Under the pieces are notes generated by a model. The model ran no database searches. It was not told the DNA's origin and was given only the letters and a program-made list of their open reading frames with translations. From an uncultured Alcaligenaceae bacterium (GTDB taxonomy: Bacteria > Pseudomonadota > Gammaproteobacteria > Burkholderiales > JACQAP01), in NCBI GenBank assembly GCA_964396485.1, contig CAYNFN010000467.1, positions 1 through 38,789 of the forward strand: 38,789 nucleotides of DNA, given 5' to 3'. This document shows positions 24,094 through 38,789 of this stretch, one piece after another. A program made the position numbers and the translations under genes. Each line of letters begins with the position of its first letter. The first letter of the stretch is position 1.

Positions 24094-24335
24094 GCGCGGC
24101 CTTCTTCGATGAGTTCTTTGATGTTTACGCCGCCGCGCACCGGGTTGTTTCGCATGAACGCTTTGAACTTTTCAACCGCAGCGGACTTGTTTTTCGGTTT
24201 CACGCTTTCGCTTGGAACGAGGTCAGCCATCGCCTCGCCGCGATTGGTGATCGTAAACCGCTTGCCCGCCTTTACTTGCCGCAGCAGCTCGGGCAGTTTG
24301 GTCTTGGCCTCGTAGGCGCCGATTTCGATTTTCAT
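24090..24335 (-). CDS. Phd/YefM-family type II antitoxin
   Basis: MKIEIGAYEAKTKLPELLRQVKAGKRFTITNRGEAMADLVP is the canonical Phd/YefM N-terminal fold signature. It lies directly upstream of vapC and is coupled to it. Confidence 0.8.
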   Translation of the reverse strand: MKIEIGAYEAKTKLPELLRQVKAGKRFTITNRGEAMADLVPSESVKPKNKSAAVEKFKAFMRNNPVRGGVNIKELIEEGRA

Positions 24336-24687: not shown

Positions 24688-24876
24688 GGGTCGAGGTTCG
24701 AGGGCCGAGGACTGAGGACTGAGTAAAGGCGAGTGCTCGGTGCGAGAAGGGAAGGGCCAAGGTTCGAGGGCTGAGGACTGAGGACGGAGGGCCGAGAAAA
24801 GGCGAGAGGAAAGAGGAAAGTAAGGACCAAACTGCAGGACTCGGGACTCAAAAGATCGGTGACGAGTGACTGATGG
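24688..24876. repeat. heptanucleotide-register degenerate tandem repeat block R3
   Basis: gggtcga ggttcga gggccga ggactga ggactga gtaaagg cgagtgc tcggtgc ... tgaggac tgaggac ggagggc cgagaaa aggcgag aggaaag aggaaag taaggac ... tcggtga cgagtga ctgatgg. A single 7-nt phase holds throughout. Confidence 0.85.
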
Positions 24877-24948: not shown

Positions 24949-26184
24949 ATGTACCAGCGGAATATCTCCAGTCGCCTGCTCGATGCCCTGAGGCGCGCGC
25001 CCGTGGTGGTGCTGAACGGTGCCCGCCAGACCGGCAAGAGCACGCTGGCCAGAGCTTTCGCCGAGGGGGCTCATCCGGCCGAATACCTCACGCTGGACGA
25101 TGCCGCCGTGTTCGCGGCCGCCAATTCCGATCCCCAGGGATTCATTCAAGGACTCCGCGGCCCAGTAGTTCTCGATGAAGTCCAGCGCGCGCCCGCCTTG
25201 TTCAGGGCGGTCAAACTGGAGGTCGACCAGCGTCGGGTTCCCGGGCGGTTTCTTCTTACAGGATCGGCGAATGTGCTGACACTGCCGGTCCTGTCGGAGT
25301 CCCTTGCCGGTCGCTCTGAGCTGCTCACGCTGTGGCCATTGTCTCAAGGCGAACTCGAAGGCACGCTGGAGAATTTCATCGACCGATGCTTCGAGGGTAC
25401 TTTCCCGCCGTCATCGGCGCAGACGGATTCTCGAACGAAGCTGGCGAACCGAGTTGCGACGGGCGGTTTTCCGGAAGTGATCGGAAAGGACGCCTCGGGC
25501 AGGGCGGCATGGTACGGGTCCTACATCACGACAATTCTGCAACGGGATGTCCGCGAGCTTGCGAATATCGACGGACTTACGGAAATGCCGAGATTACTCG
25601 CCTTGCTGGCCTCAAGGGTCGGTGCCTTGCTCAACTTGGCTGAGGTGTCTCGCAGCAGTGGGATTTCGCAGACGACATTGAGGCGTTATCTTGCGCTGCT
25701 GGAGACGACTTTCCTTTTCGCCGCGCTGCCAGCGTGGTCGACCAATCTCGGCAAGAGGCTAGTCAAGGCCCCGAAGGCTTTTCTGACCGACGCGGGTCTT
25801 GCGGCTTACCTCACCGGTCGTGACGAAAACCGGCTCGCGGGAGATCCGTCTGCGTTCGGCGCTTTGCTCGAGAACTTCGTCGTGATGGAGCTTCGAAAGC
25901 AGGCCGGTTGGGCTTTAAATCGCGTGAGTCTTTTTCACTTTCGGACACAGGTTGGGCAGGAGGTCGATGTCGTCATCGAACGCCCGGACGGGGATATTGT
26001 CGGTATAGAGATCAAGGCATCGGCCACCATCGAGCCTCGGGACATGAATGGATTCAAGGCGCTTGCCGAGATCGCCGGCAGGCGGTTTCGTGGCGGTATT
26101 CTTCTTTACACGGGGCAGAAGACCGTACCGTTCGGTAGTGGCATCCAAGCTGTGCCCTTGTCCCGGTTATGGGGAAAGAAATAG
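24949..26184 (+). CDS. AAA+ ATPase with DUF4143-type C-terminal domain
   Basis: The Walker A motif is LNGARQTGKSTL and the Walker B-like motif is VVLDEVQ. The C-terminal FENFVVMELRKQ...EVDVVIE...GIEIKAS pattern is a restriction-endonuclease-like fold as in DUF4143 proteins. Confidence 0.7.
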   Translation: MYQRNISSRLLDALRRAPVVVLNGARQTGKSTLARAFAEGAHPAEYLTLDDAAVFAAANSDPQGFIQGLRGPVVLDEVQRAPALFRAVKLEVDQRRVPGRFLLTGSANVLTLPVLSESLAGRSELLTLWPLSQGELEGTLENFIDRCFEGTFPPSSAQTDSRTKLANRVATGGFPEVIGKDASGRAAWYGSYITTILQRDVRELANIDGLTEMPRLLALLASRVGALLNLAEVSRSSGISQTTLRRYLALLETTFLFAALPAWSTNLGKRLVKAPKAFLTDAGLAAYLTGRDENRLAGDPSAFGALLENFVVMELRKQAGWALNRVSLFHFRTQVGQEVDVVIERPDGDIVGIEIKASATIEPRDMNGFKALAEIAGRRFRGGILLYTGQKTVPFGSGIQAVPLSRLWGKK

Positions 26185-26232: not shown

Positions 26233-26522
26233 GGTGACTGGTGACCGGTGACCAGTGACGGGGAACGGCAAGTGCTCAGCGCGAGGTGCGTAAGAGCAGT
26301 GCTCAGTACTCGGTGCGCAGTGCGAAGTGCGTAAGAGCAGGGCCGAGGTTCGAGGGCTGAGGACTGAGGACGGAGGGCCGAGAAAAGGCGAGAGGAAAGA
26401 GGAAAGTAAGGACCAAACTGCAGGACTCGGGACTCAGGGAGAAACGAGTGCGCAGTGCGAGAAGGGCAGGGTCGAGGGTCGAGGGCCGAGCGCCGAGAAA
26501 AGGCGGGTGCTCGGTGCCGAGA
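26233..26522. repeat. heptanucleotide-register degenerate tandem repeat block R4
   Basis: ggtgact ggtgacc ggtgacc agtgacg ... then a gtgctca/gtgcgca-type run, then a 97-bp stretch (26340-26436) identical but for 1 nt to 24754-24850, then gggtcga gggtcga gggccga. Confidence 0.85.
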
Positions 26523-26527: not shown

Positions 26528-26932
26528 TCATGGGAGTAGCAGGGTCCGGATGCCGTAACGCTCGTAAACCGGCAGCGCCCGTCGGTCGCAGGTGACTAGT
26601 TCGGCACCGCAGCCAGCTGCAGTCGCGGCCACCAGCGCGTCGTAGGCGGTGCCGCCGGTCACCCCGTGATCGGGCAATCCGCGAATGAAGTCCTTGTAGC
26701 CCCTTGCGTTTAACCGCAGGAACGGCTGTGGAAACCGTGTCTCCAGAAAATCACGGACGATGGGGCCGGAAGTGCGGTGAGGAGGCGGCAACCTGGTAAG
26801 CACGGAGTAGGTCTCAAGCGCGCAGTGCTCGATCAGGCGTAGCCCGCGGTCAAGGGTGCGTCGCGCGGCCTCGTGGCTCTCGTGCCAGGATGCAAATGCG
26901 GCGATGACCAGGCTGGTGTCGGCCGCCTTCAA
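26528..26932 (-). CDS. vapC: PIN-domain ribonuclease toxin
   Basis: AADTSLVIAA, LETYSVLTR, AYDALVAATAA and LVTCDRRA supply the PIN acidic residues. The TTG start overlaps the antitoxin stop (TTGA). Confidence 0.75.
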   Translation of the reverse strand: MKAADTSLVIAAFASWHESHEAARRTLDRGLRLIEHCALETYSVLTRLPPPHRTSGPIVRDFLETRFPQPFLRLNARGYKDFIRGLPDHGVTGGTAYDALVAATAAGCGAELVTCDRRALPVYERYGIRTLLLP

Positions 26933-27174
26933 CGCCGGACGCGCTCCAGGGTGTCGCGAACCTGTTCGGCCGTGAGTGCAGGCAGTTTGGCATCCGGGAC
27001 TGCAACCAGCCCTTTCCCCCGCTTCTTCAACCGTATCGGGGTCGGGGCAATCTCGATCTCAAGGCGCCCGTCACCCGCCCTGATCTCCAGCGGCTGGCCC
27101 GGTTTGAGGCCCAGGGCCTGTCGCAGCGGCTTGGGCACGACGATCCGTCCGGCGGCGTCAATGGTAGCTTTCAT
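26929..27174 (-). CDS. AbrB/MazE/SpoVT-family antitoxin (VapB-type)
   Basis: The 81-aa product is MKATIDAAGRIVVPKPLRQALGLKPGQPLEIRAGDGRLEIE..., the swapped-hairpin SpoVT/AbrB motif (G.i.iPk..R..lgl..G..l). It is the 3' part of the 385-aa track ORF 26929-28086, whose upstream 304 codons run through repeat block R5 and antisense to wecA, so I do not believe that part. ATG was verified at 27172-27174 (cat on +). Confidence 0.75.
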   Translation of the reverse strand: MKATIDAAGRIVVPKPLRQALGLKPGQPLEIRAGDGRLEIEIAPTPIRLKKRGKGLVAVPDAKLPALTAEQVRDTLERVRR

Positions 27175-27227: not shown

Positions 27228-27405
27228 GGCCGAGGACGGAAGACGGAGGACTGAGGACTGAGGGCCGAGAAAAGGCGAGAGGAAAGAGAAAAGAGGAAAG
27301 AGGAAAGTAAGGGCGAGGACTCAGGACTGAGGGCCGAGGACTGAGGACGGAGCGCCGAGGACTGAGGACTGAGTACTGAGTAAGGGCAAGTGCTAGGTGC
27401 GAGTT
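27228..27405. repeat. heptanucleotide-register degenerate tandem repeat block R5
   Basis: It uses the same word set (ggccgaggac, ggactgagg, gagaaaaggcgagaggaaag, aggaaagtaaggg, gactcaggactgagggccgagg) in the same polarity. Confidence 0.8.
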
Positions 27406-27570: not shown

Positions 27571-28644
27571 ATGCTGTACGCCATAGTGGCGTTTGTCGGC
27601 ACGCTGTGTTTGATCTTTCTGCTGCGCAAGTACGCTCGCGGGTTCGGGCTGGTCGACACGCCTTCCCCCCGCAAGACCCATCTCGGCGAGATTCCCGTGA
27701 TCGGGGGCCTTGCGATCGGTATTGCTTTCCTCCTGACTTCGCTCACGCAGTATTCGGTCGAGCCGAACCTTCTCGCGCTCATCGTTTGTTGTCTTGTGAT
27801 CCTGTCGACTGGACTGCTCGACGACATGGAGGAATTTTCGGCGCGCGGCAAATTCGTCGGGCAGGTCATTGCCGCGGTGCTCATGACGTCCTGGGCGAAC
27901 CTGTACCTCACCGATCTCGGCAACCTCTGGGGCACTGGCGAGGTGGTGCTGAGGAATTGGGAGATCCCGTTCACGTTGTTCTGCGTCATCGGGCTTATCA
28001 ACTCGATGAACATGATCGACGGTCTCGATGGGCTCGCCGGCGGCATCGCAGCCATCGCGGCCGTGTGGCTCGGCGTGGCGGCGCATATCGAGTATCCGTT
28101 CAAAGATCCGGCAGCGCTGCTTTTCATCTTGGCCGCGGCGGTGGCGGGGTTCCTGGTGTTCAATTTACGGCATCCGTGGAGACGGCACGCGTCGGTATTT
28201 CTCGGGGACTCCGGCAGCATGTTCCTCGGGTTCGTGCTGGTTTGGTTCACCGTGGACATTACGCAGGGTGCGCCGAGCGATTTCTACCCCATCTCCGCGG
28301 TGTGGGTTCTGGGTGTGCCGATCATCGATACCGTGTATCTGATGGTGCGCCGTATAACCTTGGGCCGGAATCCATTCGCACCCGACCGGAGGCATGTCCA
28401 TCACACGCTGATCTTCATGGGGCTTTCCGAGAGTCGGACACTTTGGTTGCTTCTGGGCATGTCCGCACTCTTCGGCGCGATCGGGTTTTTCGGCTGGTAT
28501 TTCAAGGTGCCGGAATACATTCTGACCTACGGCTTCCTGGCGACTTTCGCTGCTTATGGCGTTTTCATGCAGCGCTGGCGCGAAATCCTCTGGTTCTTCG
28601 GCGTCAAGCACAAGCACCTTCCCGCCAGGACGCAGGAGCGATAA
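27571..28644 (+). CDS. undecaprenyl-phosphate HexNAc-1-phosphate transferase (WecA/WbpL, MraY-like family)
   Basis: 357-aa polytopic protein with GLVDTPSPRKTH, LLDDMEEFSARGKF, NSMNMIDGLDGLAGG, LGDSGSMFLGF and a C-terminal HVHH. These are the signature blocks of polyisoprenyl-phosphate N-acetylhexosamine-1-P transferases. A GGGGAGG Shine-Dalgarno sequence lies upstream. Confidence 0.85.
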   Translation: MLYAIVAFVGTLCLIFLLRKYARGFGLVDTPSPRKTHLGEIPVIGGLAIGIAFLLTSLTQYSVEPNLLALIVCCLVILSTGLLDDMEEFSARGKFVGQVIAAVLMTSWANLYLTDLGNLWGTGEVVLRNWEIPFTLFCVIGLINSMNMIDGLDGLAGGIAAIAAVWLGVAAHIEYPFKDPAALLFILAAAVAGFLVFNLRHPWRRHASVFLGDSGSMFLGFVLVWFTVDITQGAPSDFYPISAVWVLGVPIIDTVYLMVRRITLGRNPFAPDRRHVHHTLIFMGLSESRTLWLLLGMSALFGAIGFFGWYFKVPEYILTYGFLATFAAYGVFMQRWREILWFFGVKHKHLPARTQER

Positions 28645-28651: not shown

Positions 28652-28982
28652 GGTGACCAGTGACTGGTGACAAGTGACGGGGAAAGGCAAAGATGAAGGC
28701 GGAAGGATGAAGGATGAAGAAAGACAGGGCCGAGGACTGAGAAAAGGCGAGGACTCAGGACTGAGGACGGAGGGCCGAGAAAAGGCGAGAGGAAAGGGGA
28801 AAGTAAGGGCGGTGACCAGTGACTGGTGACGAGTGACCAGTAAAGTTGAGGACTCGGGACGCAGCGAGAAGAGCAGGGCTGAGGTACGAGGGCCGAGGAA
28901 GGGCGAGGACTGAGGACTGAGGACGGAGGGCCGAGGAAGGGCGAGGACTCAGGACCCAGCGAGAAACGAGTGCGCAGTGCGA
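28652..28982. repeat. heptanucleotide-register degenerate tandem repeat block R6
   Basis: ggtgacc agtgact ggtgaca agtgacg ... tgaaggc ggaagga tgaagga tgaagaa ... aggactc aggactg aggacgg agggccg ... tgaccag tgactgg tgacgag tgaccag ... cgaggac tgaggac tgaggac ggagggc. About 330 bp in one phase. Confidence 0.85.
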
Positions 28983-29045
28983 CACCTGTTGAGTCCCTTC
29001 TCCCTCCGGGAGAAGGACAGGATGAGGGGGCTTTTGCCGGTGTTA

Positions 29046-29106
29046 TTCCCTCACCCCAACCCTCTGCTCCGCTTCAAGTGTTCCCTTGTCCCGGAGGGAG
29101 AGGGGG
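29046..29106 (+). repeat. about 60-bp dispersed repeat, copy A (C-rich arm ... G-rich arm, REP-like)
   Basis: ttccctcaccccaaccctctgctccgcttcaagtgttcccttgtcccggagggagaggggg. About 90% identical by eye to copy B at 30737-30798. It is preceded by a separate hairpin, ccttctccc-tcc-gggagaagg, at about 28996-29016. Confidence 0.7.
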
Positions 29107-29500: not shown

Positions 29501-30613
29501 ATGTTGTTACCTGGAAGCAAAGAGAATGACACCTGGTCGTTGGGCGCCTTGACCCGACTGGACTCCTATCGATTGGCGCTGACCCCGGCAAAAGAAGGGG
29601 TCGATCCCGCGGCATTTCGCGCGGCGCTGACAGAGGGTGGGCCCGCATTTGTGGATTTACTTCTAACGCAGAATCTCGGGGCGTGGTGGCATCATTGCCT
29701 TCAGGTAAACGGCTTACTTGAGTCGCTGCCACGCGGCGTGGCCGATGCATTGCAGCAGGCACGCATGGCGGCTGCGGCGAGATACCTGGCGCAGCGCACG
29801 GCGCTGATTCACATCGACCAGCTATTCGAAGCAGCGGGCATTTCCTACGCGGTCATGAAAGGCGCGCACGTGCGCGAGTGCGCGTACCCCGACCCTTCTC
29901 TGCGACTGACCGGCGACATCGACGTGTTGGTCACAGCGCCGGACCGGCGGTGCGCGGCGCACGCTCTGCTCGATGCCGGTTACTCGGTGAATGCTGACCT
30001 CGCCATAATCAGCCACGAGGCATGCTTCACGCGCTCGCCGGTGGAGATCGACCTGCACTGGGACATCATGCGGCCGGGCCGGACCCGCGCGGACATGACG
30101 GCGGGCTTGCTCGCGCGGCGACGACGGATCAACGGTTTCTGGGGGTTGTCCGATGCCGACGCTTTGTTCCTGATGCTGACCCATCCGGCATTCGCGAAGT
30201 ACGTATGCTCTCCGAACATGGGGTTGCCGCGCGTCGCGGACTTTCTGCTCCGGATCCAGAACAGGACGATTGATTGGCCCGCCGTCATGCGTTTGCTGGA
30301 AGTGGCAGGGCTGAGAACTGCCGCCTGGACCATGCTTAACTGGTTCCGGATGCTGGCCGCGCCGGCCGCAGGGGCGATTATCGACGGATGGCTGAACAGT
30401 CTGCGCCCGGGCGGCTTAAGGGCGCACTATCTTCGGCGTTGGCTGGATCATGATTTGCCGAGCCGCTGGTTGAACCGCCCGCTATTGATCCAGCTCGGGT
30501 TGACGCTGTTTCTGCACGATCGGTTCTCTGATACGTTGCATGCGGCGCAAGGGTGGCTGCATAGTCGTCGAAATCGCGGGCGTGACCTCCGGTTGTTGTT
30601 GGGTAACGACTGA
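29501..30613 (+). CDS. nucleotidyltransferase family protein (PF14907-like, as found in the HPr-rel-A system and in phosphorylated/glycosylated lasso clusters)
   Basis: 370 aa. ISYAVMKGAHVRECAYPDPSLRLTGDIDVLVTAPD...LLDAGY...VEIDLHWDI matches the pattern (l.lKG..l....Y.dp.lR...DiDlLV ... veLHw) that I associate with the uncharacterised nucleotidyltransferase family. Confidence 0.6.
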   Translation: MLLPGSKENDTWSLGALTRLDSYRLALTPAKEGVDPAAFRAALTEGGPAFVDLLLTQNLGAWWHHCLQVNGLLESLPRGVADALQQARMAAAARYLAQRTALIHIDQLFEAAGISYAVMKGAHVRECAYPDPSLRLTGDIDVLVTAPDRRCAAHALLDAGYSVNADLAIISHEACFTRSPVEIDLHWDIMRPGRTRADMTAGLLARRRRINGFWGLSDADALFLMLTHPAFAKYVCSPNMGLPRVADFLLRIQNRTIDWPAVMRLLEVAGLRTAAWTMLNWFRMLAAPAAGAIIDGWLNSLRPGGLRAHYLRRWLDHDLPSRWLNRPLLIQLGLTLFLHDRFSDTLHAAQGWLHSRRNRGRDLRLLLGND

Positions 30614-30736
30614 CTTTCTACGATGGGTATGAGGAAACCGCGAATTCCCAGCGATGCCGTTGGTGTCGGACGATACGGGAGAGACGCCACGGCGCGTGCG
30701 CCGCGAATTGCGGCCATGAACCTGTCGTGGCGTCTC

Positions 30737-30798
30737 TTCCCTCATCCCCAGCCCTTCTGCTCCGCTTCAAGTGTTCCCTTGTCCCGAGGGGAGAAAGG
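30737..30798 (+). repeat. about 60-bp dispersed repeat, copy B
   Basis: ttccctcatccccagcccttctgctccgcttcaagtgttcccttgtcccgaggggagaaagg, in direct orientation relative to copy A. It lies just upstream of the ABC transporter start and accounts for the spurious N-terminal extension of track ORF 30727. Confidence 0.7.
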
Positions 30799-30831
30799 AG
30801 CGTCGTGCTCCCCGCCCGGGCGGGGAGGTTC

Positions 30832-32511
30832 ATGGGTAGCGGCGTGAAAGGCATGGGTCTGCGAGCAATGCTGGGTTTCGCGCAACCTTATCGGACTTCG
30901 CTCACCGTAAGCGCGCTGCTGATGATCGCCGAGAGCGGCGTGGCGCTGGCGGTGCCGTGGCTCGCCGGCCACTTGGTCGAAAGCATGCTGGCCGCTACTG
31001 CATCCGCGTCCGGGGCCGGGCCGGTGTTGCTCGGGCTGCTTGCCCTGTTTGGTTTGCAGTCGCTGCTCAAGTTCGGCAACAGCTACCTGCTCAGCCATAG
31101 TGCGGAGCACATCCTGGCCGATCTGCGTATCCATCTCTACGATCACTTGCAGGCGCTGCCACTGGCCTTCTATCACCAGCGCCGCCGCGGTGAAATTCTC
31201 GCGCTGCTCACGAACGACGTCGGCCGCCTGAGCGGTTTTATCAGTGGCACCTTGCCGAGTTTGATTCCTCTGCTGCTTACTGTCGCCGGCGCCGTGCTGC
31301 TGATGTTCCGCATCGATGCCCGCTTGGCGCTGTACGTGGCCGCACTGGTGCCGCTGTTCTATCTGTTGCTGAAGATTCTCGGCCGAGGTCTGCGTCCGCT
31401 GGCTGGGCAGTTGCAAGAGGCGCATGCCGGGGCGGTCGCCATCGCCGAGGAAAACCTCGGCATGCTGCCGGCGATCAAGACCTTCACCCGCGAACCGGAG
31501 GAATCAGAACGCTATCGGCGGCAGATTCACCACATCCTGCATCTGAGCGCCGCGGAGCGGCGAATCGTCGCCGCGTTGGGGCCTGCGCTGCAGTTTCTTG
31601 CCGCGGCCGCCATGCTGTTGGTGCTCTGGCTGATGAGCGGGCAGATGATCGATCGTTCGCCGGCGGACATGGTGAGTTTTCTGCTCTATGCCGCGCTGCT
31701 CACCCGGCCTGTCAGCGCGCTGGCCGATGTCTATGGCCAGACCCGCCAGGCGCGCGGCTCACTGGAGCGGCTCAGGCAAGTGCTCACGGAGCGCCCCGAG
31801 CCGCTCCTGCGAATCGGGCACGCATTGCCACCAGTGCGAGGCGAAATTGAGTTTCGCGACATCCACTTCGCTTATCCGGGTCGCCCGCGGGCCCTCCGCG
31901 CGCTCAATCTGTATATTCGCGCCGGCGAGACGATCGCTATCACCGGCGTGAACGGCGCGGGCAAGAGCACCATTGCCCATTTGCTCATGCGCCTGGCGGA
32001 ACCCGATCACGGTCATATCTTCATCGATGGGGTGGACATTGCCGGGGTGACGCTGAACAGCCTGCGCGCTCAGATCGGCCTGGTTCCGCAGCATGTGCTG
32101 CTGTTTCATGGCACGGTGCGCGACAACATCGGCTATGGCCGCCCCGAGGCCGGCGCCGATTCGGTCATCGCGGCCGCCCGTGCCGCCCAGGCGCATGAAT
32201 TCATTTCCGCTCTTCCGCAAGGCTACGACAGCGTGATCGGCGACCAGGGCATTCGATTGTCCGGCGGTCAGCGCCAGCGCATCGCGCTCGCCCGCGCCCT
32301 CATCAAGGATCCGCCGATCCTGATCCTCGACGAGGCCACCGCCATGTTCGATCCGCAAGGCGAGAAATCCTTTGTCGAGGAGTGCCGGCACGGGCTGGCG
32401 CATCGAACCGTTATACTCATTACTCATCGTCCGGCGAGTCTGGCGCTGGCGGATCGAGTGGTACACCTGGAGGCCGGTTGCATTGCGGATTGGCGAAAGC
32501 CGATACCATGA
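30832..32511 (+). CDS. ABC exporter, fused permease/ATPase (type I exporter, McjD/MsbA-like)
   Basis: Six N-terminal TM helices, Walker A GVNGAGKST, signature LSGGQRQRIALARAL, Walker B ILILDEAT and an H-loop ITHR. ATG 30832 follows GGAGG; ATG 30853 is an alternative. The stop overlaps the B2 start (ATGA). Confidence 0.85.
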   Translation: MGSGVKGMGLRAMLGFAQPYRTSLTVSALLMIAESGVALAVPWLAGHLVESMLAATASASGAGPVLLGLLALFGLQSLLKFGNSYLLSHSAEHILADLRIHLYDHLQALPLAFYHQRRRGEILALLTNDVGRLSGFISGTLPSLIPLLLTVAGAVLLMFRIDARLALYVAALVPLFYLLLKILGRGLRPLAGQLQEAHAGAVAIAEENLGMLPAIKTFTREPEESERYRRQIHHILHLSAAERRIVAALGPALQFLAAAAMLLVLWLMSGQMIDRSPADMVSFLLYAALLTRPVSALADVYGQTRQARGSLERLRQVLTERPEPLLRIGHALPPVRGEIEFRDIHFAYPGRPRALRALNLYIRAGETIAITGVNGAGKSTIAHLLMRLAEPDHGHIFIDGVDIAGVTLNSLRAQIGLVPQHVLLFHGTVRDNIGYGRPEAGADSVIAAARAAQAHEFISALPQGYDSVIGDQGIRLSGGQRQRIALARALIKDPPILILDEATAMFDPQGEKSFVEECRHGLAHRTVILITHRPASLALADRVVHLEAGCIADWRKPIP

Positions 32512-32969
32512 CATCCATAACCGGAAAACTGGCGAAGTTCCGCGCGCTTTCAAAGACGCACCGGCGGATCATATTGAACGCGGCGTTCTTGCTGCCGTTG
32601 TTCTGGATCGGTTTGCATTTCATTGGTCTGCGCCGTTTGCAGGCCTGGTTGCAACACACGCCCGCGCGTTCGGACATGCGGCTTTCTCTGGATGATGTCA
32701 TGGCGATAGGCAATCTCGTGAATATCGCCGGCCGCCACGCGCCGTGTCCGATGAACTGCCTCACGCGTTCCCTACTGCTCGACTGGACGCTGCGCCGCCG
32801 CGGTGTGGCGAGCCAGCTGCGCATCGGCGTGCGTCTGTCGCAGGGCGCGCTCGATGCTCATGCCTGGGTCGAAGTTGCCGGCGTTCCCGTTAATGATCGG
32901 TCGGACGTGAGCGAGCAGTTCGCAGCGTTTGCCGAAATTTTGCCTCCCGCGGCCTTCCAGTCGCCGTGA
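32508..32969 (+). CDS. lasso peptide biosynthesis B2 protein (transglutaminase-like leader peptidase)
   Basis: 153 aa. NCLTRSLLLDWTLRRRGVASQLRIGV...LDAHAWVEVAGVPVND is the C..RSL.l...L.r.G....l..GV......HAWVe..G pattern with the Cys/His/Asp triad of McjB-C-terminal/B2 proteins. Confidence 0.8.
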   Translation: MTSITGKLAKFRALSKTHRRIILNAAFLLPLFWIGLHFIGLRRLQAWLQHTPARSDMRLSLDDVMAIGNLVNIAGRHAPCPMNCLTRSLLLDWTLRRRGVASQLRIGVRLSQGALDAHAWVEVAGVPVNDRSDVSEQFAAFAEILPPAAFQSP

Positions 32970-33010
32970 GCGGAATCACCGGCATCAATCACTGGCCAAG
33001 GTCCACGTAG
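32966..33010 (+). other. 15-codon relic resembling the 5' end of the cyclase gene, overlapping the B2 stop (GTGA)
   Basis: gtgagcggaatcaccggcatcaatcactgg (VSGITGINHW...stop at 33008-33010) matches atgagcgggatcgccggcatcattcattgt (MSGIAGIIHC) at 33972 in 24 of 30 nt, by my own alignment. Confidence 0.5.
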
Positions 33011-33020
33011 CGCCGGGCTC

Positions 33021-33908
33021 GTGCATCGCATGTTGCAGAAGAAAGGGGATGAGTCGTTGAGTGATTCTTCTTTATATGGAATGGCGGGGCAGGCGCTTGG
33101 GCGACCGAACAGGAGCAGTGCCTATCCATGGTATGACTCTGTCTGGCTTGAAGAATATACGAAAGCCAAGGCTATTATTCGCAAAATAAAGCCTGGCGCC
33201 TTGACTACTTTCGAGTCTGCTTTTCAGATTTTTCAAACCCGCAATGATTTTCAGGAAAAAGTTCTTGAGCGCGTGTTTGACGATAACACGCTCGATGAAA
33301 TCAGGCGCGTTGTCAAATCGTTAAGGCCATCGGATGTCGAAATGCACGAGGCACAAAGTTTCAAACGTTTTGTCGTGCATGACAATCCATTTTTTAATGA
33401 GCTGCAAAAGCAAATAACTCCATTGGTAAGCGCAGCAGCGGGTGAGCCGGTGGAAACGTCCTACAACTTCCTCAGCCTCTACAGCGCCATGGGCGTTTGC
33501 CCGGTCCATATGGACTCGCCTACGGCGAAATGGACGCTTGACATTTGTCTCGATCAGAGTGTGGGGTGGCCCATCTATTTCAGCCGACCCCATACCTGGT
33601 CAGAAATAGAAGCGCAAAACTGGTCCGACGAAGACTGGGCGGAGGTTATCAAAAGCTCTCCAACAGCCGACTTCAAGTCGTATATTTTGGAGCCGGGGCA
33701 GGCAATCCTGTTTTCTGGCGCCAGTCAGTGGCATTACCGGGATCCGATGCCCAAATCAGATGGCCGTGCCAGCTGTGATTTACTTTTTTTCCATTTCATT
33801 CCGCAGGGCACTTCCGAGTTGGTGAACCCACGGAACTGGGCGGGTTTGTTCGGAATTCCAGAACTTGCACGAGCTGTGAAAGCGTCTCCGAAGATCCCAC
33901 ATGGATAG
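33021..33908 (+). CDS. hypothetical protein, possible Fe(II)/2-oxoglutarate-dependent oxygenase (cupin fold)
   Basis: 295 aa and visibly more AT-rich than its neighbours. A candidate facial triad comes from CPVHMDSP (H.D) and SQWHYRD (distal His) about 70 residues apart, with beta-strand-like segments between them. There is no stronger motif. The start is uncertain (GTG 33021, ATG 33030 or 33081). Confidence 0.35.
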   Translation: MHRMLQKKGDESLSDSSLYGMAGQALGRPNRSSAYPWYDSVWLEEYTKAKAIIRKIKPGALTTFESAFQIFQTRNDFQEKVLERVFDDNTLDEIRRVVKSLRPSDVEMHEAQSFKRFVVHDNPFFNELQKQITPLVSAAAGEPVETSYNFLSLYSAMGVCPVHMDSPTAKWTLDICLDQSVGWPIYFSRPHTWSEIEAQNWSDEDWAEVIKSSPTADFKSYILEPGQAILFSGASQWHYRDPMPKSDGRASCDLLFFHFIPQGTSELVNPRNWAGLFGIPELARAVKASPKIPHG

Positions 33909-33971
33909 CAGTCGTGTTCGCTTGGAAAGGTTTTTGGACGCTCCCGTTCTCGCCACGGCCTGTATCGCACC

Positions 33972-35852
33972 ATGAGCGGGATCGCCGGCATCATTCATTG
34001 TGACGGTGTGCCCGTCGAACCGGGGCTGGTCGAGAAAATGACCGCCGCCATGGCCTACCGCGGGCCGGACGGCATCAACCATTGGGTCAAGGGCTCGGTT
34101 GCATTGGGGCAGTGCATGCTGCGCACAACCCCGGAATCGCTCGAAGAAACCCAGCCGCTGACAAACGAAGACCAGAGCCGGGTGCTCGTCATGGATGGGC
34201 GCGTGGACAATTGGGAAGAACTCCGCACGGAGCTGCTCGCCTGCGGCGCGATGCTCAGAAACCGCGCCGATGCCGAACTGGTATTGCGAGCCTACGAGAC
34301 TTGGGGCCGGGACTGCCTCACGCACATCGACGGCGACTTCGCACTGGTGATCTGGGATGTGCGGCGGCAGGAAGCGTTTTGCGCGCGCGACCGCATGGGT
34401 AACAAGCCGTTCCATTATCATTGGAGCGGTAACACGCTGGTCTTTGCCTCAGAACTGCATCCGATTCTCGCGCTGCCGTGGGTGCCGCAAATGCCGAATG
34501 AGGGCATGCTGGCAGAGTTTCTCGCGGCGGAGTGGTATTCGCGCGATGAAACACTTTGGAATGGAATCCTGCGTCTCCTTGCCGCGCACCGCATGACGGT
34601 CGGCCGTCGCGGGCCGCAAACCGATCAATACTGGGGACCGAATCTGTGGGCGGCACCGGCATATACAAGGGACGAAGAATATTTCGAGCATTACCGGGAA
34701 TTGCTAACGGACAGCGTCCGGCGGTTGTCGCGTTCGCACCGCCCGGTCGCCGTCGAGGTCAGCGGCGGTCTCGATTCCTCCGCCGTGTTCTGCCTCGGGG
34801 AGCACCTGCGTCGTGCCGGTCGTTTGCCCGCGCCCGGTATCCGTGGGTACACCATGGCCTTCACGGACGACAGCGCCGCCAATGAAATCGCCTATGCCCG
34901 GGCCGTAGGCGAATATTTGGGTCTGCCGATTGAGGAGATCGCCCCTTCCATCCCACCGCTTTCCTGGTATGAAGAGCGCGCTCACATGTACCGGGAGTTC
35001 CCCGGTTATCCGAACGGGACGATGTATCTTGATGCGATGAGGCATGCTGCATCTCTGGGGTGCCGCACGGTGCTGACCGGCCAAGGGGGCGACGCCTGGG
35101 CGCAAGGTTCACGGGAGTACTATGCCGAGGAGATGGCGCAACGGCATTGGACCGCGCTTCGAGACAGCTTCAGAAATGATTCCGGCGTGTACGGTACCCA
35201 GCAGGCCATGGCATGGTTTGTCCGGTACGGCTTTTATCCCTTGCTTCCAATCGCACTTCAGCATGGATTGCGCCAACTGGTGCGCAGGCTGCGCGGCACG
35301 GCGATTCGCGACACCTATTGGCTTTCGCCGCGGATGCGGCAGGTTATTGCGGCGCGTCGTGAACACCCCCGTCCGTGGATTGGTCAGCGAGTGCGCAGTA
35401 TCAGTCAGCGGGAATTGCTTCAGAAACTGTATGACGCGTTTACCATCCAGGCAATGGAATTCCTGGATCGGGAGGGCGCCCGTGCCGGGTTCGAAATACG
35501 GCATCCGTTCCATGCCACGGCCTTTGTCCAATTCGCGTTCGCGACGCCGGCAAGGCTGCGATTGCGGGGCGATCGCACCAAATACATTCACGTCCAGGCC
35601 ATGCAAGGCCTGATGCCCCCGATCATCCTCGATCGGAAAACCAAGGCGGAATTCTCGGTTGTATTCCATATGCAGATGGTCCGGATGAAATCGCTGCTGA
35701 CCGAATCGATTCCCAGGGAGCGAACCGGCTGGGTAGACCCGGTGGGCACGTCCATGCTCTTCCAAGCGTATGTGAACACCCCGCAGGTGGGTTGGCCATT
35801 ATGGGTTTTGTGGAGTATCTTTGGGTCTGACGCGGTGGTGAAAGGGCTCTGA
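33972..35852 (+). CDS. asparagine-synthetase-like lasso peptide cyclase (C protein)
   Basis: 626 aa with AsnB architecture and the PP-loop VEVSGGLDSS. It begins MSGIAG, so Ser replaces the catalytic Cys2, unlike the two MCGI paralogs at 9465 and 13499. It lies next to B2 and the precursor gene. Confidence 0.8.
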   Translation: MSGIAGIIHCDGVPVEPGLVEKMTAAMAYRGPDGINHWVKGSVALGQCMLRTTPESLEETQPLTNEDQSRVLVMDGRVDNWEELRTELLACGAMLRNRADAELVLRAYETWGRDCLTHIDGDFALVIWDVRRQEAFCARDRMGNKPFHYHWSGNTLVFASELHPILALPWVPQMPNEGMLAEFLAAEWYSRDETLWNGILRLLAAHRMTVGRRGPQTDQYWGPNLWAAPAYTRDEEYFEHYRELLTDSVRRLSRSHRPVAVEVSGGLDSSAVFCLGEHLRRAGRLPAPGIRGYTMAFTDDSAANEIAYARAVGEYLGLPIEEIAPSIPPLSWYEERAHMYREFPGYPNGTMYLDAMRHAASLGCRTVLTGQGGDAWAQGSREYYAEEMAQRHWTALRDSFRNDSGVYGTQQAMAWFVRYGFYPLLPIALQHGLRQLVRRLRGTAIRDTYWLSPRMRQVIAARREHPRPWIGQRVRSISQRELLQKLYDAFTIQAMEFLDREGARAGFEIRHPFHATAFVQFAFATPARLRLRGDRTKYIHVQAMQGLMPPIILDRKTKAEFSVVFHMQMVRMKSLLTESIPRERTGWVDPVGTSMLFQAYVNTPQVGWPLWVLWSIFGSDAVVKGL

Positions 35853-35951
35853 AGCTACTTTAGGTGGCCGCTTATGGCATGCTTTCTGCTGGCTATTTGA
35901 GTTCGTTCAGACAATTGTTGCCAATTTCAAAATTCATATTTTTTTTGGGGA

Positions 35952-36365
35952 ATGACCATGAACGATAAGAAAAACCCTCTCACCGCAAGCAAGAACGCGA
36001 CGGTCAAGACCGCCAAGCCTGATAAAGCCTCCTATTCTGCGCCCCTGCTTCGGGTTTATGGTTCCGTGAGCAAGCTGACTTTGGGTGGTGGTGGTAGTTT
36101 GGGCGATGGCGCACTCATGGATATGTTGCCGAGCGATCGATTGATTAAAGAAAACATCGTCCGAATCGACACCCACCCGTTCGGCATAGGCCTTTACCTG
36201 TTCGACTACAAGCCGGAATACCGGGAACGTTGCGGCACTGGCCGGCAGCTTGGTATCATGGCCGATGAAGTTGAAACGGTTGTACCGGATGCAGTATTCG
36301 TTCACCCAGACGGCTACAAGATGGTCAACTACGCGAAGCTGGGGATCAGTCACGGTATCCAGTAA
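35952..36365 (+). CDS. lasso peptide precursor fused to a C-terminal Peptidase_S74-type intramolecular chaperone (self-cleaving) domain
   Basis: The leader is ...KASYSAPLLRVYGSVSKLTL with Y-17, P-14, L-12, G-8 and T-2. The core is GGGGSLGDGALMDMLP (36084-36131), with Gly1 and Asp8. From 36132 it reads SDRLIKENIVRIDTHPFGIGLYLFDYKPEY...GRQLGIMADEVETVVPDAVFVHPDGYKMVNYAKLG. That matches the S74 pattern SD.r.K.NI ... G.iAqEv..v.P..V ... dGy..vnY..L, including Ser and Lys five residues apart. The start is ATG 35952 or ATG 35958; the latter has better spacing from GGGGA. A 100-bp AT-rich spacer lies upstream. Confidence 0.75.
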   Translation: MTMNDKKNPLTASKNATVKTAKPDKASYSAPLLRVYGSVSKLTLGGGGSLGDGALMDMLPSDRLIKENIVRIDTHPFGIGLYLFDYKPEYRERCGTGRQLGIMADEVETVVPDAVFVHPDGYKMVNYAKLGISHGIQ

Positions 36366-36394
36366 GCCGGGCGGGGAGGCGTAGCGCAGGTTCT

Positions 36395-37516
36395 ATGCTG
36401 CAGGAGCACCTGGATTATGTCGCTGATCTTGTCAGACTGGAACGATACAGGGCCGCAATAACCAAGGTTGTTGCTCCCGGAAATACCGTAGCAGATTTGG
36501 GGTGCGGCTCGGGGGTGCTGGGGTTGTTGTGCCTGCAGGCCGGCACGGGCCATGTGTATGCTGTCGATGACAGCGCCATGATCGACATTGCCCGGGAGTC
36601 TCTGACGCGAGCCAGTCTGGTTGACCGCGCCACCTTCATCCGTGGCAAATCCAGCCAGATCGAATTGCCCGAGCGGGTAGACGTGGTGATCTGTGATCAT
36701 GTCGGCTACTTCGGTTTTGACTACGGTGTGGTTGAGTTTCTCGGAGACGCCAAACGGCGTTTTCTCAAGCCGGGCGGCACACTGATCCCTTCAAAAATCC
36801 GGCTCAATATTGCCGCTGCCGGTTCACAGAAATGCAGCGCGCTTGCCGATGGCTGGCAAGGCAACAACATCCCTCCCGAGTTTCACTGGCTGCGCAGTTA
36901 TTCGATCAATACCAAGCATGCGGTCGAGTTTGGGCGGGATGACGTTCTTGGTCCGCCTGCTGTACTGGGCGATATCGATCTCTATGCGGATAACCCGGAG
37001 TTTTTTTCCTGGAACGCAGAGTTGCGTATCGAACGCGACGGGGTGATGCACGGCGTGGCCGGTTGGTTCGACTGCGAGCTGGCCGAGAATGTCTGGATGA
37101 CGAATTCGCCGCTGGCGGCAAAACCAATCCGCCGTCCGCAGGCTTTTCTGCCCATCGGTGAGGCCGTGCCGGCAAAGTGCGGAGATGTTGTCACAGTCAC
37201 CATCATGGTGCGTCCGGCCGAGCAGTTAATTGCCTGGACCGTGGAATTCTCAACCACAGGACAGCGCTTCAGCCATTCAACTTGGCAGAGTATATTGTTG
37301 TCGCCGGAAAATCTGATCCGGGCCAACCCCCGCCATATTCCGCAGTTAAGCCGGGAAGGGCGGGCACGCATGACGGTGCTGGGATACTGTGATGGAAAAA
37401 GAACAACGCAGGAAGTCGAACAGGCAGTGCTGCGCGATCATCCGAACTTGTTCCCGACCAGCGGAGAAATTGCACGCTTCGTGGCACGGGTGCTGGGCAG
37501 GGATACCGGAGCGTGA
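36395..37516 (+). CDS. PRMT-fold SAM-dependent methyltransferase with C-terminal PqqD/RRE-like winged-helix extension
   Basis: The sequence reads RYRAAI...VADLGCGSGVLGLLCLQAG..HVYAVDDS...ATFIRGKSSQIELPERVDVVICDHVGYFGFDYGV...FLKPGGTLIP. It then has a beta-barrel-like half, VMHGVAGWFDCEL...GDVVTVTIMVRP. Both parallel PRMT1 block by block. The last 60 aa (ARMTVLGYCDGKRTTQEVEQAVLRDHPNLFPTSGEIARFVARVL) look PqqD-like. Confidence 0.6.
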   Translation: MLQEHLDYVADLVRLERYRAAITKVVAPGNTVADLGCGSGVLGLLCLQAGTGHVYAVDDSAMIDIARESLTRASLVDRATFIRGKSSQIELPERVDVVICDHVGYFGFDYGVVEFLGDAKRRFLKPGGTLIPSKIRLNIAAAGSQKCSALADGWQGNNIPPEFHWLRSYSINTKHAVEFGRDDVLGPPAVLGDIDLYADNPEFFSWNAELRIERDGVMHGVAGWFDCELAENVWMTNSPLAAKPIRRPQAFLPIGEAVPAKCGDVVTVTIMVRPAEQLIAWTVEFSTTGQRFSHSTWQSILLSPENLIRANPRHIPQLSREGRARMTVLGYCDGKRTTQEVEQAVLRDHPNLFPTSGEIARFVARVLGRDTGA

Positions 37517-38376
37517 CGGACTACAGTTTGGCAGAGGCGCGCCCGCAAATACCCCTCGGCAATGCGCTGTTCCACCAATGGATCTTCCCGGACGGTACGA
37601 CCTGGACGCAGTTCTATCGCGCTGAGAGCGGTTATCTGCTGCGTTTCCCCGATCTCGCGGATTTTTTGGTATCACGCGATGGCCGTGCGGTGAGCTGCTG
37701 GCCCGTGCCTGGCGTTTCGGATCAATCGGTGCAACACCTCTATCTGAATCAGGTGTTGCCGCTGGCGCTCAGCAGACAGGGGAAACTGGTTTTTCATGCC
37801 AGCGCCGTGGAGATAGGCGACGCGGCAGTTGCTTTTATGGGCGAGGCCGGCCGAGGCAAGTCCACCCTGGCGGCAAGTTTCGCCACCACCGGATCGCGCT
37901 TTCTCACCGATGACGGACTGGCGGTGGAGACAGTTGCGGGAGATTGGCGTGTTCTGCCAAGTCACCCCTCCATTCGTCTATGGGAAGACAGTCAGGATGC
38001 GCTGGTGCGCACGGGCGTGCGGAAGGCCCCACCGGTCTCGTATACCTCCAAGGCGCGATTCCTGGCGGGTGACGATATTGTTTTCTGCGAAGAACCACGG
38101 CGGCTTCAAGGTGTGTATTTTCTCGGCACGGGTGTGTCGCCGGAACCGATGTTCGAGCGCTTGCAGCCCAGCGACGCCTTGATCGAGCTGGTGAAGCATT
38201 CTTTCCTGCTCGATATAGAGGAGCACGAGCTACTCGCGGCACATTTCGATGAACTGTCCCGCCTGGCGAACCGGCCGATATACTATCGTCTGGATTATCC
38301 ACGGCGTTTCGAAGATCTGGCACAGGTCAGAAGGGCGATCGTGGATCACGTGCATGCAGAGGACACGACGGCATGA
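37513..38376 (+). CDS. HPr kinase/phosphorylase-related kinase (HprK-related kinase A-like; lasso precursor kinase candidate)
   Basis: FHASAVEIGDAAVAFMGEAGRGKSTLAASFATTGSRFLTDDGLAV parallels the HprK C-terminal domain HG..v...G.GvLi.G.SG.GKSe.a..l...Gh.LvaDD. The GTGA overlap with the methyltransferase gene and the ATGA overlap with the PqqD gene indicate one translationally coupled unit. Confidence 0.7.
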   Translation: MTDYSLAEARPQIPLGNALFHQWIFPDGTTWTQFYRAESGYLLRFPDLADFLVSRDGRAVSCWPVPGVSDQSVQHLYLNQVLPLALSRQGKLVFHASAVEIGDAAVAFMGEAGRGKSTLAASFATTGSRFLTDDGLAVETVAGDWRVLPSHPSIRLWEDSQDALVRTGVRKAPPVSYTSKARFLAGDDIVFCEEPRRLQGVYFLGTGVSPEPMFERLQPSDALIELVKHSFLLDIEEHELLAAHFDELSRLANRPIYYRLDYPRRFEDLAQVRRAIVDHVHAEDTTA

Positions 38377-38645
38377 ATCTTTCCGACAAAATAAAAATAC
38401 CGGCGCAGGTGATGGCGCGGCAGGTGGGCGCGGAGACGGTGATTCTGGACTTGGCCACCGGCACATACTTCGGTCTGGATCCGGTCGGCGCGCGCATCTG
38501 GCAACTGATGAGTGAAGGCAAAACGCTTGCGGAAGTCTGCGACGCGATGCAGACGGAATTTGAGGTGTCGCGCGAAGACATCGAGCGCGACGTCATCGAG
38601 TTGACGGAGAAACTGAAAGCGCAGCAGTTAATCAGCGCTGCGTAA
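38373..38645 (+). CDS. PqqD-family RiPP recognition element (lasso B1)
   Basis: 90 aa. VGAETVILDLATGTYFGLDPVGARIWQLMSEGKTLAEVCDAMQTEFEVSREDIERDVIELTEKLKAQQLI is the classic PqqD pattern (e.vll......y.Ln..g..iW.l.....t..ei...l...y.v....e.dv..fl..L...gli). Confidence 0.8.
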   Translation: MNLSDKIKIPAQVMARQVGAETVILDLATGTYFGLDPVGARIWQLMSEGKTLAEVCDAMQTEFEVSREDIERDVIELTEKLKAQQLISAA

Positions 38646-38789
38646 AAGGGAAAAAGGGGAAAGTTAAGGGCGAGGACTCAGGACTGAGGGCCGAGTAAAG
38701 GCGGGGACTGAGGACGGAGGGGCGGGGACTGAGTAAGGGCGAGGACTCAGGACTGAGGGCCGAGGACTGAGTAGAAGCAGTGACTCAGG
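38646..38789. repeat. heptanucleotide-register degenerate tandem repeat block R7 (runs to the window edge)
   Basis: aaagggaaaaaggggaaagttaagggcgaggactcaggactgagggccgagtaaaggcggggactgaggacggagg... uses the same words and the same polarity as R1-R6, and shares aagggcgaggactcaggactgagggccgag with R5. Confidence 0.8.

Follow-up and report, generated by a model that had tools for sequence, protein, structure and literature searches.

We analysed a 38,789-nucleotide stretch of DNA from an uncultured Alcaligenaceae bacterium (contig CAYNFN010000467.1 of assembly GCA_964396485.1, hereafter the window) and describe nine genes at positions 29501-38645 that likely form an operon for the biosynthesis of a lasso peptide of class II type, made from a precursor whose follower is predicted to cleave itself. 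The open reading frame (ORF) at 35952-36365 is very probably the precursor of this lasso cluster. It joins a lasso leader and a Gly-rich core to a Peptidase_S74 domain, the kind of intramolecular chaperone (ICA) domain known from phage fibres and MyRF, and the balance of the evidence favours a follower that cuts itself off between Pro60 and Ser61. A first-pass annotation of the window had treated this domain as one added item of the cluster; no other feature of the locus is as unusual.

The precursor and its predicted core

The 137-residue precursor is divided into leader, core and follower (Table 1), and profile matches are given here and below against curated Pfam and NCBIfam cut-offs. The lasso leader model NF033521 (lasso_leader_L3) matches residues 28-46 with 20.9 bits (cut-off 19), and Y28, P31, G37 and T43, the last at position -2, are invariant in 30 aligned homologues. 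The predicted core, residues 45-60 (GGGGSLGDGALMDMLP), has Gly1 and Asp8, matching the lasso requirement of a small residue 1 and Asp or Glu at 7-9, and would form a Gly1-Asp8 ring followed by an 8-residue Met-rich tail, GALMDMLP, which contains neither Ser nor Thr. The calculated [M+H]+ of the 16-residue lasso is 1429.645, and a 17-mer keeping Ser61 would weigh 1516.677. In the AlphaFold2 (AF2) model residues 1-57 are disordered, with a predicted local distance difference test score (pLDDT) below 50.

A database search returned 535 precursor homologues, nearly all of 126-152 residues. The few that carry a name from their source are annotated as 'hypothetical protein' or 'tail fiber domain-containing protein', and software that looks for precursors among short ORFs is therefore likely to miss the family. 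An exhaustive profile search for the family covered 1.84 billion representatives, and 86 of its best 150 clusters at 50% identity were proteins below 200 aa with the full leader-core-follower pattern. Among the 120 best homologues, 118 display a leader with T(-2), a ring ending in D or E, a variable tail and [S/C][D/E/H]xxxK, while a stricter pattern fits 103 of the 120; the follower has 77 residues in most of them (range 71-80). In the 118, the ring acceptor D/E lies at position 8 in 114, at 9 in three and at 7 in one, positions 1-4 of the ring are mostly Gly, and position 5 is Ser or Thr in 64%. The tail is hypervariable and 6-12 residues long. It contains 20.5% Met, with at least two Met in 83 of the 118, and bulky Phe, Trp, Tyr, His, Arg or Lys are present in only 46. 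At least one Ser or Thr occurs in every ring (118/118) versus 89 of the 118 tails, and the residue before the follower Ser varies (Pro 34, Ala 20, Val 14, Met 13, others). More classical cores with Tyr and Cys pairs are found in some family members, for example P0290. Conserved flanks around a hypervariable core, as seen in these alignments, are the usual signature of a RiPP (peptide that is made by the ribosome and modified after translation) precursor.

The Met residues of the 118 tails (residues 53-60 in the window) often appear as MxM or MM motifs, and aromatic residues are scarce. MxM motifs are typical Cu(I) ligands, and metal binding by the Met-rich tails is a possibility. In the representative search, P0274 (746 aa) presents an AsnB-like cyclase in frame with a leader-core-S74 precursor (...YAAPVLTTYGLVRDLTANGSQNGNENNSGQDPMTMINSDRRMKDNIV...), which could be a genuine cyclase-precursor fusion or reflect a stop codon that was missed. 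The window was also searched for a second precursor of the conventional short kind: a six-frame scan with the leader motif matched the S74 ORF alone, except for one out-of-context site around position 2244 on the minus strand.

The follower domain and its predicted self-cleavage

The Peptidase_S74 model PF13884 scores 25.8 bits on the whole precursor, at residues 61-115, and 28.2 bits on residues 61-137 alone (cut-off 22). This compact, 77-residue follower opens with S61-D-R-L-I-K66-E-N-I. In the 30 aligned homologues K66 never varies and S61 and D62 hardly do; over the homologues as a whole S61 is kept in at least 90%, Cys being the only substitute seen (P0057 and P0070). A search with the family profile finds the ICA domain of MyRF (7dc3) and a phage long-tail-fibre chain (6f45), with Ser61 and Lys66 aligned to the catalytic positions, S587 and K592 in MyRF; the 7dc3 chain bears Ala at the Ser position, being the S587A mutant. 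The follower shares the SDxxxK(E/Q)N motif with the phage endosialidase endoNF, other phage tail fibres and spikes and the eukaryotic MyRF/MrfA (ICA, also CIMCD), its dyad having the spacing of S911/K916 and S587/K592, and its aromatic 'LYLFDYKPE' strand and 'GVMADEVETV' helix align with MyRF.

The MyRF pair S587/K592 is equivalent to S911/K916 of endoNF, and MyRF is cut between P586 and S587, as determined by mass spectrometry (PMC8326128). Cleavage on the N-terminal side of Ser has also been stated for endoNF S911 and MrfA S767 (PMC3828593). Since S74 domains are cut on that side of the Ser, self-cleavage would be predicted between Pro60 and Ser61, and the mature peptide would end at Pro60. 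The natural Ser-to-Cys variants, together with the observation that MYRF S587C still cleaves (PMC3742440), fit a role of Ser61 as nucleophile. Independent support comes from a sibling cluster, L047, with the same kinds of enzymes. Its 52-residue precursor (...YSSPVLQCYGVVIQLTQ, then GSGSNNGDGTSMNMR and the stop codon, with LTQ directly before GSGSNNGDGTSMNMR) stops where the S74 domain would begin, which fits removal of the follower, and it ends in Arg. By analogy with the characterised domains, we consider self-cleavage between Pro60 and Ser61 rather probable.

As for structure, residues 61-134 are folded in the AF2 model (pLDDT about 70-80). The top Foldseek matches of the precursor model are three 7dc3 chains and they are weak (E 0.04, template modelling score, TM, 0.30), as is to be expected when a strand-swapped trimer is modelled as a monomer. 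ICA domains trimerise (PMC8326128). The coiled coil that endoNF and MyRF have at their C-terminus is missing from the follower.

With 77 residues, the follower is to our knowledge the shortest ICA domain. It resembles endoNF and MyRF in being a C-terminal domain expected to be discarded; what lies upstream differs, being a trimeric beta-helix or fibre in those proteins and a disordered 60-residue RiPP leader and core here. Also, endoNF is phage-encoded and has a long coiled coil, whereas the short follower is found in a biosynthetic operon. The same S74 domain of about 77 residues, preceded by ...M(G/M)SDR..K, ends two unrelated Gln/Ala-rich proteins, P0310 (275 aa) and P0335 (413 aa), and the compact ICA module appears, from these sequences, to be portable beyond lasso precursors. 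A phage or prophage origin of the S74 gene was considered and set aside: the window contains no phage genes, and synteny with the lasso enzymes is conserved.

Lasso biosynthesis genes

Nine ORFs on the plus strand were recovered at the coordinates of the first-pass annotation, and the three start/stop overlaps that it had named, ATGA at 32508, GTGA at 37513 and ATGA at 38373, were borne out by the junction letters. Profile searches confirmed its assignments of the PF14907 nucleotidyltransferase, the ABC exporter, the B2 protease, the AsnB-like enzyme, the PRMT-fold methyltransferase and PqqD. B2 and PqqD both exceed their Pfam cut-offs, and B2 also that of NCBIfam. The description of a complete lasso-type cluster (A, B1, B2, C and D) holds, with four candidate tailoring enzymes and the follower domain.

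Table 1. Features of the window, with positions counted from its first nucleotide
Feature	Position	Strand	Basis
PF14907 (NTP_transf_5) nucleotidyltransferase, PsmN-like candidate tailoring enzyme	29501-30613	+	Pfam 136 bits (cut-off 31)
ABC exporter (D), permease and ATPase fused	30832-32511	+	ABC_membrane 143.7 bits, ABC_tran 119.9 bits
Lasso leader peptidase B2, transglutaminase-core Cys protease	32508-32969	+	PF13471 81.6 bits; NF033537 77.8 bits (cut-off 33)
Fe(II)/2-oxoglutarate oxygenase-like candidate tailoring enzyme	33021-33908	+	Predicted fold and invariant HxD...H triad
Probable lasso cyclase C, AsnB-like, predicted to form the isopeptide bond	33972-35852	+	GATase_6/7 and Asn_synthase; NF033535 367 bits (cut-off 525)
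Precursor (A), whole ORF, 137 residues	35952-36365	+	NF033521 leader and PF13884 Peptidase_S74
Precursor leader, residues 1-44	35952-36083	+	NF033521 and Y28-x-x-P31...G37...T43
Precursor predicted core, residues 45-60	36084-36131	+	GGGGSLGD-GALMDMLP; homologue pattern
Precursor follower, residues 61-137, Peptidase_S74/ICA domain	36132-36365	+	PF13884; Ser61/Lys66 dyad
PRMT/PrmA-fold S-adenosylmethionine (SAM)-dependent methyltransferase	36395-37516	+	Methyltransf_25 42.4 bits, PrmA 36 bits, PRMT_C 28.2 bits (cut-off 27)
HPr-kinase-superfamily P-loop protein, candidate peptide kinase	37513-38376	+	PF07475 20.6 bits (cut-off 33.3); Walker A
PqqD-family RiPP recognition element (B1)	38373-38645	+	PF05402 74.1 bits (cut-off 23.4)
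GA-rich heptad repeat arrays	22278-22374, 23230-23371, 24707-24789, 26302-26375, 27246-27380, 28732-28952, 38672-38771		

The cyclase has NF033535 as its best NCBIfam match. It starts with MSGIAG, with Ser in place of the glutaminase Cys, and two AsnB paralogues of the neighbouring polysaccharide locus (9465-11336 and about 13500-15427) start with MCGI and keep the glutaminase nucleophile; this difference argues for a cyclase rather than an amidotransferase in the cluster, and the paralogues serve as an internal control for distinguishing the two enzyme types. B2 contains the motifs NCLTRS (83), AHAWV (117) and VNDRS (128). PqqD scores 56.6 bits on the lasso-specific model NF033536 (lasso_PqqD_Bac, cut-off 80) and 48 bits on the other one (cut-off 70).

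An element of about 60 nt occurs at 29045-29105 and 30738-30798, upstream of the nucleotidyltransferase and ABC exporter genes, with 93% identity over a 42-nt core (CC[C/T]TCTGCTCCGCTTCAAGTGTTCCCTTGTCCCG...GGGAGA); a regulatory site common to both genes is possible, as is a small repeat. Its location upstream of the ABC gene makes a GTG start at 30727 unlikely and favours the ATG at 30832. Rfam gave no match at gathering thresholds in the whole window, and scans for promoters (1 promoter-like site versus 3.3 expected) and terminators (14 terminator-like sites versus 9 expected) were uninformative.

Conservation in related loci

We examined 48 loci encoding precursor homologues, from genomes and metagenomes, mostly of Betaproteobacteria and Gammaproteobacteria (Competibacteraceae, Thiobacillus, Burkholderiales, Dechloromonas) and of Mesorhizobium. 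Synteny was counted by tblastn with the window proteins within 8 kb of the precursor, in 28 non-redundant loci flanked on each side by 4 kb or more. The cyclase, the HprK-like protein and PqqD were near the precursor in all 28, B2 in 24, the methyltransferase in 23 and the ABC exporter in 21; additionally, in 28 of 35 loci fewer than 600 nt separate the end of the cyclase gene from the precursor downstream of it. For the nucleotidyltransferase, the figure of 4 of 28 is an undercount, as Pfam flags PF14907 in L001, L003, L048, L049 and L050 and tblastn missed it in L003, L049 and L050. Its presence is variable among the relatives.

The core genes thus stay together in related genomes and are not split among unrelated operons. 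The order nucleotidyltransferase-(ABC exporter)-B2-cyclase-precursor-methyltransferase-kinase-PqqD recurs in L001 and L048. In L003 (Mesorhizobium onobrychidis) the run from B2 to PqqD is kept, and the ABC exporter and nucleotidyltransferase genes are downstream on the opposite strand; an IS21-family insertion sequence (IstB and transposase, 11643-13783) interrupts it between the methyltransferase and HprK-like genes, and this copy of the cluster may be inactivated. From sequence comparison, the locus belongs to a large, uncharacterised and mainly beta- and gammaproteobacterial family that also reaches Mesorhizobium. Sibling clusters encode short precursors without an S74 domain (L046, 4370-4621, minus strand; L047, 11181-11339, plus strand) and carry an oxygenase, a PRMT-like methyltransferase, an HprK-like protein and a nucleotidyltransferase.

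Candidate tailoring enzymes

The HprK-related kinase of the first-pass annotation keeps the P-loop (Walker A GEAGRGKST at residue 110) and falls below every curated cut-off, with 39.6 bits on TIGR04352 (HprK_rel_A) and 27.7 on HprK_rel_B, both having a cut-off of 200. We call it a kinase-like protein. The proposed link to an 'HPr-rel-A system', as NCBIfam defines it, was rejected on the low TIGR04352 score of the kinase-like protein and on PqqD, whose six NCBIfam matches at E of at most 0.1 (two lasso PqqD, PQQ PqqD, WgkC, GeoRSP and SynChlorMet ScmD) include none named for that system, which presumably has a PqqD model of its own.

In Firmicutes and Proteobacteria, the characterised lasso kinases act on the linear precursor and phosphorylate its C-terminal Ser (PMC8498205). 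In pseudomycoidin, PsmN adds a hexose to the phosphate of this Ser and is inactive as D134A/D136A (PMC6993621). The nucleotidyltransferase of the window has a DxD motif, GDIDV, at residue 138. The first-pass annotation had invoked this paeninodin-type logic, phosphate on a C-terminal Ser and then sugar on the phosphate, for the locus; it does not carry over directly, being at odds with a predicted C-terminus at Pro60 and a tail free of Ser and Thr. Candidate targets of the kinase-like protein are a Ser or Thr of the ring (Ser5 here), Ser61 if the cut is atypical, or something unrecognised. Given that every ring and not every tail of the family has Ser or Thr, a ring Ser/Thr would be the sole hydroxyl that is always available.

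The methyltransferase shows motif I, DLGCGSG, at residue 34, and both a Rossmann SAM-binding domain and the PRMT_C barrel were matched, as expected for the PRMT fold. Its segment CDHVGY...VVEF may correspond to the double-E loop of PRMT1. The cores of the 118 homologues have no conserved Arg or Lys that would suggest its target. A PqqD-like RiPP recognition element at its C-terminus was considered and found no support (no BLASTP alignment, no Pfam match at E = 10, hhalign probability 1.1%). In L047, a separate 157-aa ORF resembles the C-terminal third of this enzyme.

The gene at 33021-33908 had been called cupin/2OG-oxygenase-like. No Pfam or NCBIfam profile and no PDB sequence matched it even at E = 10, and none of its 826 homologues has a Pfam domain on record; the oxygenase part of the claim stood on other grounds. 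H163-x-D165...H238 is invariant in 30 homologues, and the AF2 model (pLDDT 84.7, predicted TM score, pTM, 0.82) has 484 Foldseek matches in the PDB at E of at most 0.001, the top ranks being Fe/2OG hydroxylases and halogenases, among them HalD, EctD, a proline hydroxylase, HygX and WelO5, all at E around 1e-7, and AlkB. These observations mark the product as a putative Fe(II)/2-oxoglutarate oxygenase with a double-stranded beta-helix, of an uncatalogued family, and the HxD rather than HxG/A triad suggests a hydroxylase.

Two additional tailoring candidates had been proposed for the locus. The methyltransferase proved to be part of the conserved set counted above, but the oxygenase lies outside it: among the relatives its gene is present in L004 only (79% identical, same position), with a distant copy in L040. 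Its GC content is 50% (55% at third codon positions, GC3) versus about 60% (GC3 64-76%) for the neighbours. In L048, B2 and the cyclase gene abut directly without an oxygenase gene between them, and homologues of 55-57% identity are found in the short-precursor clusters L046 and L047. The gene looks like an accessory low-GC insertion between B2 and the cyclase, a tailoring module that may move between lasso clusters. An M-[D/N]-M motif is present in several cores on contigs that, judged by equal length alone, probably also bear an oxygenase homologue, and in L047. The tail of P0023, apparently on the contig of P0149, is devoid of Asp and Asn. Co-occurring cores gave no consistent target.

Proposed pathway and alternative readings

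The pathway that we propose would start with binding of the YxxP leader by PqqD/B1 and a cut by B2 after Thr43-Leu44. The cyclase would adenylate Asp8 of the core and join it to the amine of Gly1, giving a Gly-rich 8-residue ring around the Met-rich tail. The follower would fold, probably as a trimer like phage fibres and MyRF, and its Ser61/Lys66 dyad would cut Pro60-Ser61 and free a 16-residue peptide for export by the ABC transporter. The HprK-like protein, the methyltransferase, the nucleotidyltransferase and, in this lineage only, the oxygenase would decorate the peptide.

Several points weigh against this pathway. Cyclase, PqqD and kinase-like protein all score under the NCBIfam equivalog cut-offs. 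Characterised lasso kinases need a C-terminal Ser, and the predicted cut would leave none. The follower is far shorter than the characterised ICA domains and has no coiled coil, so that trimerisation and cleavage are predicted by analogy. The structural match is weak, in a monomer model with an overall pLDDT of 60. Near-all-Gly rings with Met-only tails may not hold a thread, and the product could be a branched cyclic peptide; for no member of the family is there an experimental product.

Most tails of the family are without bulky plug residues, for which reason we propose, tentatively and as a less probable extension of the pathway, that the follower serves for a time as stopper or stabiliser and then removes itself. 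In pseudomycoidin, a bulky phospho-hexose has been proposed to lock an otherwise unstable thread (PMC6993621). By analogy, the follower, bulky modifications or both could hold the thread in the plug-poor tails.

Among the alternatives, the S74 domain may stay on as an oligomerisation or display scaffold, not a leaving group, and the product would be a small protein, probably a trimer, capped at its N-terminus by a lasso knot. Lasso peptides fused C-terminally to folded proteins can be made (PMC8498205), ICA domains trimerise, and the many invariant positions of the follower amount to strong conservation, more than a disposable handle might need. We regard a retained domain as unlikely nonetheless, for the Ser/Lys dyad is conserved, with Cys alone replacing Ser, sibling clusters use a short precursor ending at the junction, and the ABC exporter belongs to the peptide-exporting type.

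Alternatively, cleavage or trimming might leave Ser61 at the C-terminus, and the product would be of the paeninodin/pseudomycoidin type: the kinase would (poly)phosphorylate Ser61 and the nucleotidyltransferase would add a hexose to the phosphate. A nearly invariant Ser right at the end of the core, the HprK-like gene in 28 of 28 loci, the C-terminal Ser target of the characterised firmicute and proteobacterial lasso kinases and the transfer of hexose to Ser phosphate by PsmN-type enzymes would all suit such a product. It is nevertheless quite improbable, since the MyRF mass spectrometry and the endoNF statements put the cut N-terminal to Ser, a Ser nucleophile acting in cis attacks the preceding peptide bond, and the short precursor of L047 ends in Arg and not in Ser.

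A more distant option is that the S74 peptidyl-O-Ser ester is resolved by a nucleophile other than water, such as a phospho-sugar or glycan made with the HprK-like protein, the PF14907 enzyme and the neighbouring sugar-nucleotide and polysaccharide genes, to give a lasso peptide with a C-terminal conjugate in the style of cholesterol transfer by Hedgehog. We see this as a long shot; if true, the C-terminus of a RiPP would be activated by an autoprocessing domain, and the lasso peptide could be tied covalently to an envelope polysaccharide.

Finally, that these genes serve a polysaccharide pathway, with an AsnB-like amidotransferase, sugar-modifying enzymes and an S74 protein that is a tail-fibre-like remnant, as its public annotation 'tail fiber domain-containing protein', the adjoining large polysaccharide locus with its own two AsnB paralogues, the Wza-Wzz genes directly upstream in L004 and L048 and the sugar-nucleotide genes inside L047 might invite one to think, is hardly credible, because B2 and PqqD are lasso-specific partners above Pfam cut-offs, the leader motif is invariant and the core hypervariable, the glutaminase Cys of the true AsnB paralogues is missing from the cyclase, the surrounding 10 kb are free of polysaccharide genes in many relatives, and no phage genes are present.

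The polysaccharide neighbourhood

Positions 1-28644 hold a polysaccharide locus with many glycosyltransferases, the two AsnB paralogues, a UDP-GlcNAc 2-epimerase, a heparinase II/III-like protein and a WecA-like transferase. Most of its genes end by 22243, and the WecA-like gene follows at 27571-28644. Inserted between a GT4 gene and the WecA-like gene is a toxin-antitoxin-like island (22617-23151, plus; 23662-24335, minus; 24949-26184, plus; about 26929-27100, minus) with a RelE/ParE-like pair, a PIN/VapC-like protein with a Phd-like antitoxin, an AAA_14/DUF4143 ATPase and a MazE-like fragment; the RelE/ParE-like and PIN/VapC-Phd pairs were identified by reading the sequences and not by profile search. 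GA-rich heptad repeats (about GAGGACT / AGGGCCG) form arrays at seven places, with 43 matches versus 2.2 expected, all on the plus strand except three one-mismatch matches on the minus strand. None was found in the first 22 kb, inside the cluster or in 50 related loci, and Rfam gave no match for the repeat. The arrays bound the toxin-antitoxin cassettes, the AAA_14/DUF4143 ATPase gene, the WecA-like gene and the whole lasso cluster. They may mark the limits of cassettes, or be an intergenic repeat specific to the organism.

The first-pass annotation had the cluster attached to this polysaccharide locus. The locus does lie upstream, but it is mostly set apart by the toxin-antitoxin cassettes. 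With cassettes and repeats in between, adjacency is here weak evidence of a functional linkage, and in the window it could be incidental. Among the relatives, Wza-Wzz lies directly upstream of the nucleotidyltransferase gene in L004, the closest relative, and in L048, where PqqD is followed by a flippase and further glycosyltransferases. Sugar-nucleotide and glycosyltransferase genes flank the clusters of L001 and L003, and L047 has an epimerase and a UDP-glucose dehydrogenase within the cluster. By a crude tblastn count, one or more polysaccharide-type genes lie within 10 kb in about 13 of 32 long loci, and about seven belong to clear polysaccharide loci; in L049 and L050 there are none. The association is recurrent and not universal, and we infer that supply of sugar donors for glycosylation of the peptide is its simplest explanation.

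Comparison with known systems and significance

The paeninodin (PadeK) and pseudomycoidin (PsmK/PsmN) clusters resemble the locus in having split B1/B2, a cyclase, an ABC exporter and an HPr-kinase-superfamily gene, and pseudomycoidin also in a PF14907-type nucleotidyltransferase with a DxD motif. Zhu et al. in 2016 reportedly described polyphosphorylated lasso peptides of Proteobacteria, for example from Sphingobium yanoikuyae, and their clusters count among the closest characterised ones of the kinase type. The precursors of kinase-type clusters are short and end in the Ser of the kinase site, whereas a 77-residue S74 domain and a predicted C-terminal Pro are found here. Those clusters differ also in gene order, the PRMT-fold methyltransferase and the Fe/2OG oxygenase are extra in the window, and a Gly-rich ring with a Met-rich tail sets its core apart.

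Regarding the tailoring enzymes, canucin has in CanE an Fe/2OG beta-hydroxylase of a lasso precursor and is thus alike in housing an enzyme of this fold inside a lasso cluster (PMC9266682). Unlike CanE, the oxygenase of the window has no detectable relation to any Pfam family and is accessory, being present in this lineage and some siblings. SAM-dependent tailoring of lasso peptides is known from StspM, the lassomycin-type C-terminal O-methyltransferase, and from the PIMT homologues of cellulonodin-2 and lihuanodin (PMC9266682), whereas the methyltransferase described here has a PRMT/PrmA fold with a PRMT_C barrel and not that of a mitomycin-type O-methyltransferase or a PIMT. The nearest parallel to the follower among lasso peptides is engineered. 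Astexin-1 precursors fused at the C-terminus are still processed (PMC8498205), and in the fusions to green fluorescent protein or a leucine zipper (Zong et al., 2016) a lasso was likewise formed with a folded protein on its tail; those fusions are artificial and needed an added protease site, in contrast with a natural fusion that brings its own predicted protease.

The literature on lasso peptides with S74, tail fiber, endosialidase or PF13884 yielded nothing relevant, though a report in a subscription journal is possible, and among the papers listed for intramolecular chaperone, autoproteolytic or follower domains none mentioned lasso peptides. A 2026 review of interlocked peptides contains none of 'follower', 'tail fiber', 'autoproteoly' and 'C-terminal extension'. 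The type of cluster is known, and a natural lasso precursor with a self-cleaving follower is without description in the literature searched.

A natural self-cleaving follower of a RiPP would surprise specialists, and hundreds of clusters share the arrangement. If cleavage occurs as predicted, the follower would be the smallest known ICA domain and would offer a natural traceless route to lasso peptides as protein fusions, for display and engineering. The all-Gly rings, the plug-poor Met-rich tails and the up to four tailoring enzymes of these clusters provide a test of what holds a lasso together. Furthermore, the finding of related clusters inside capsule or exopolysaccharide loci in several genomes raises the possibility that the peptide plays a role at the cell envelope.

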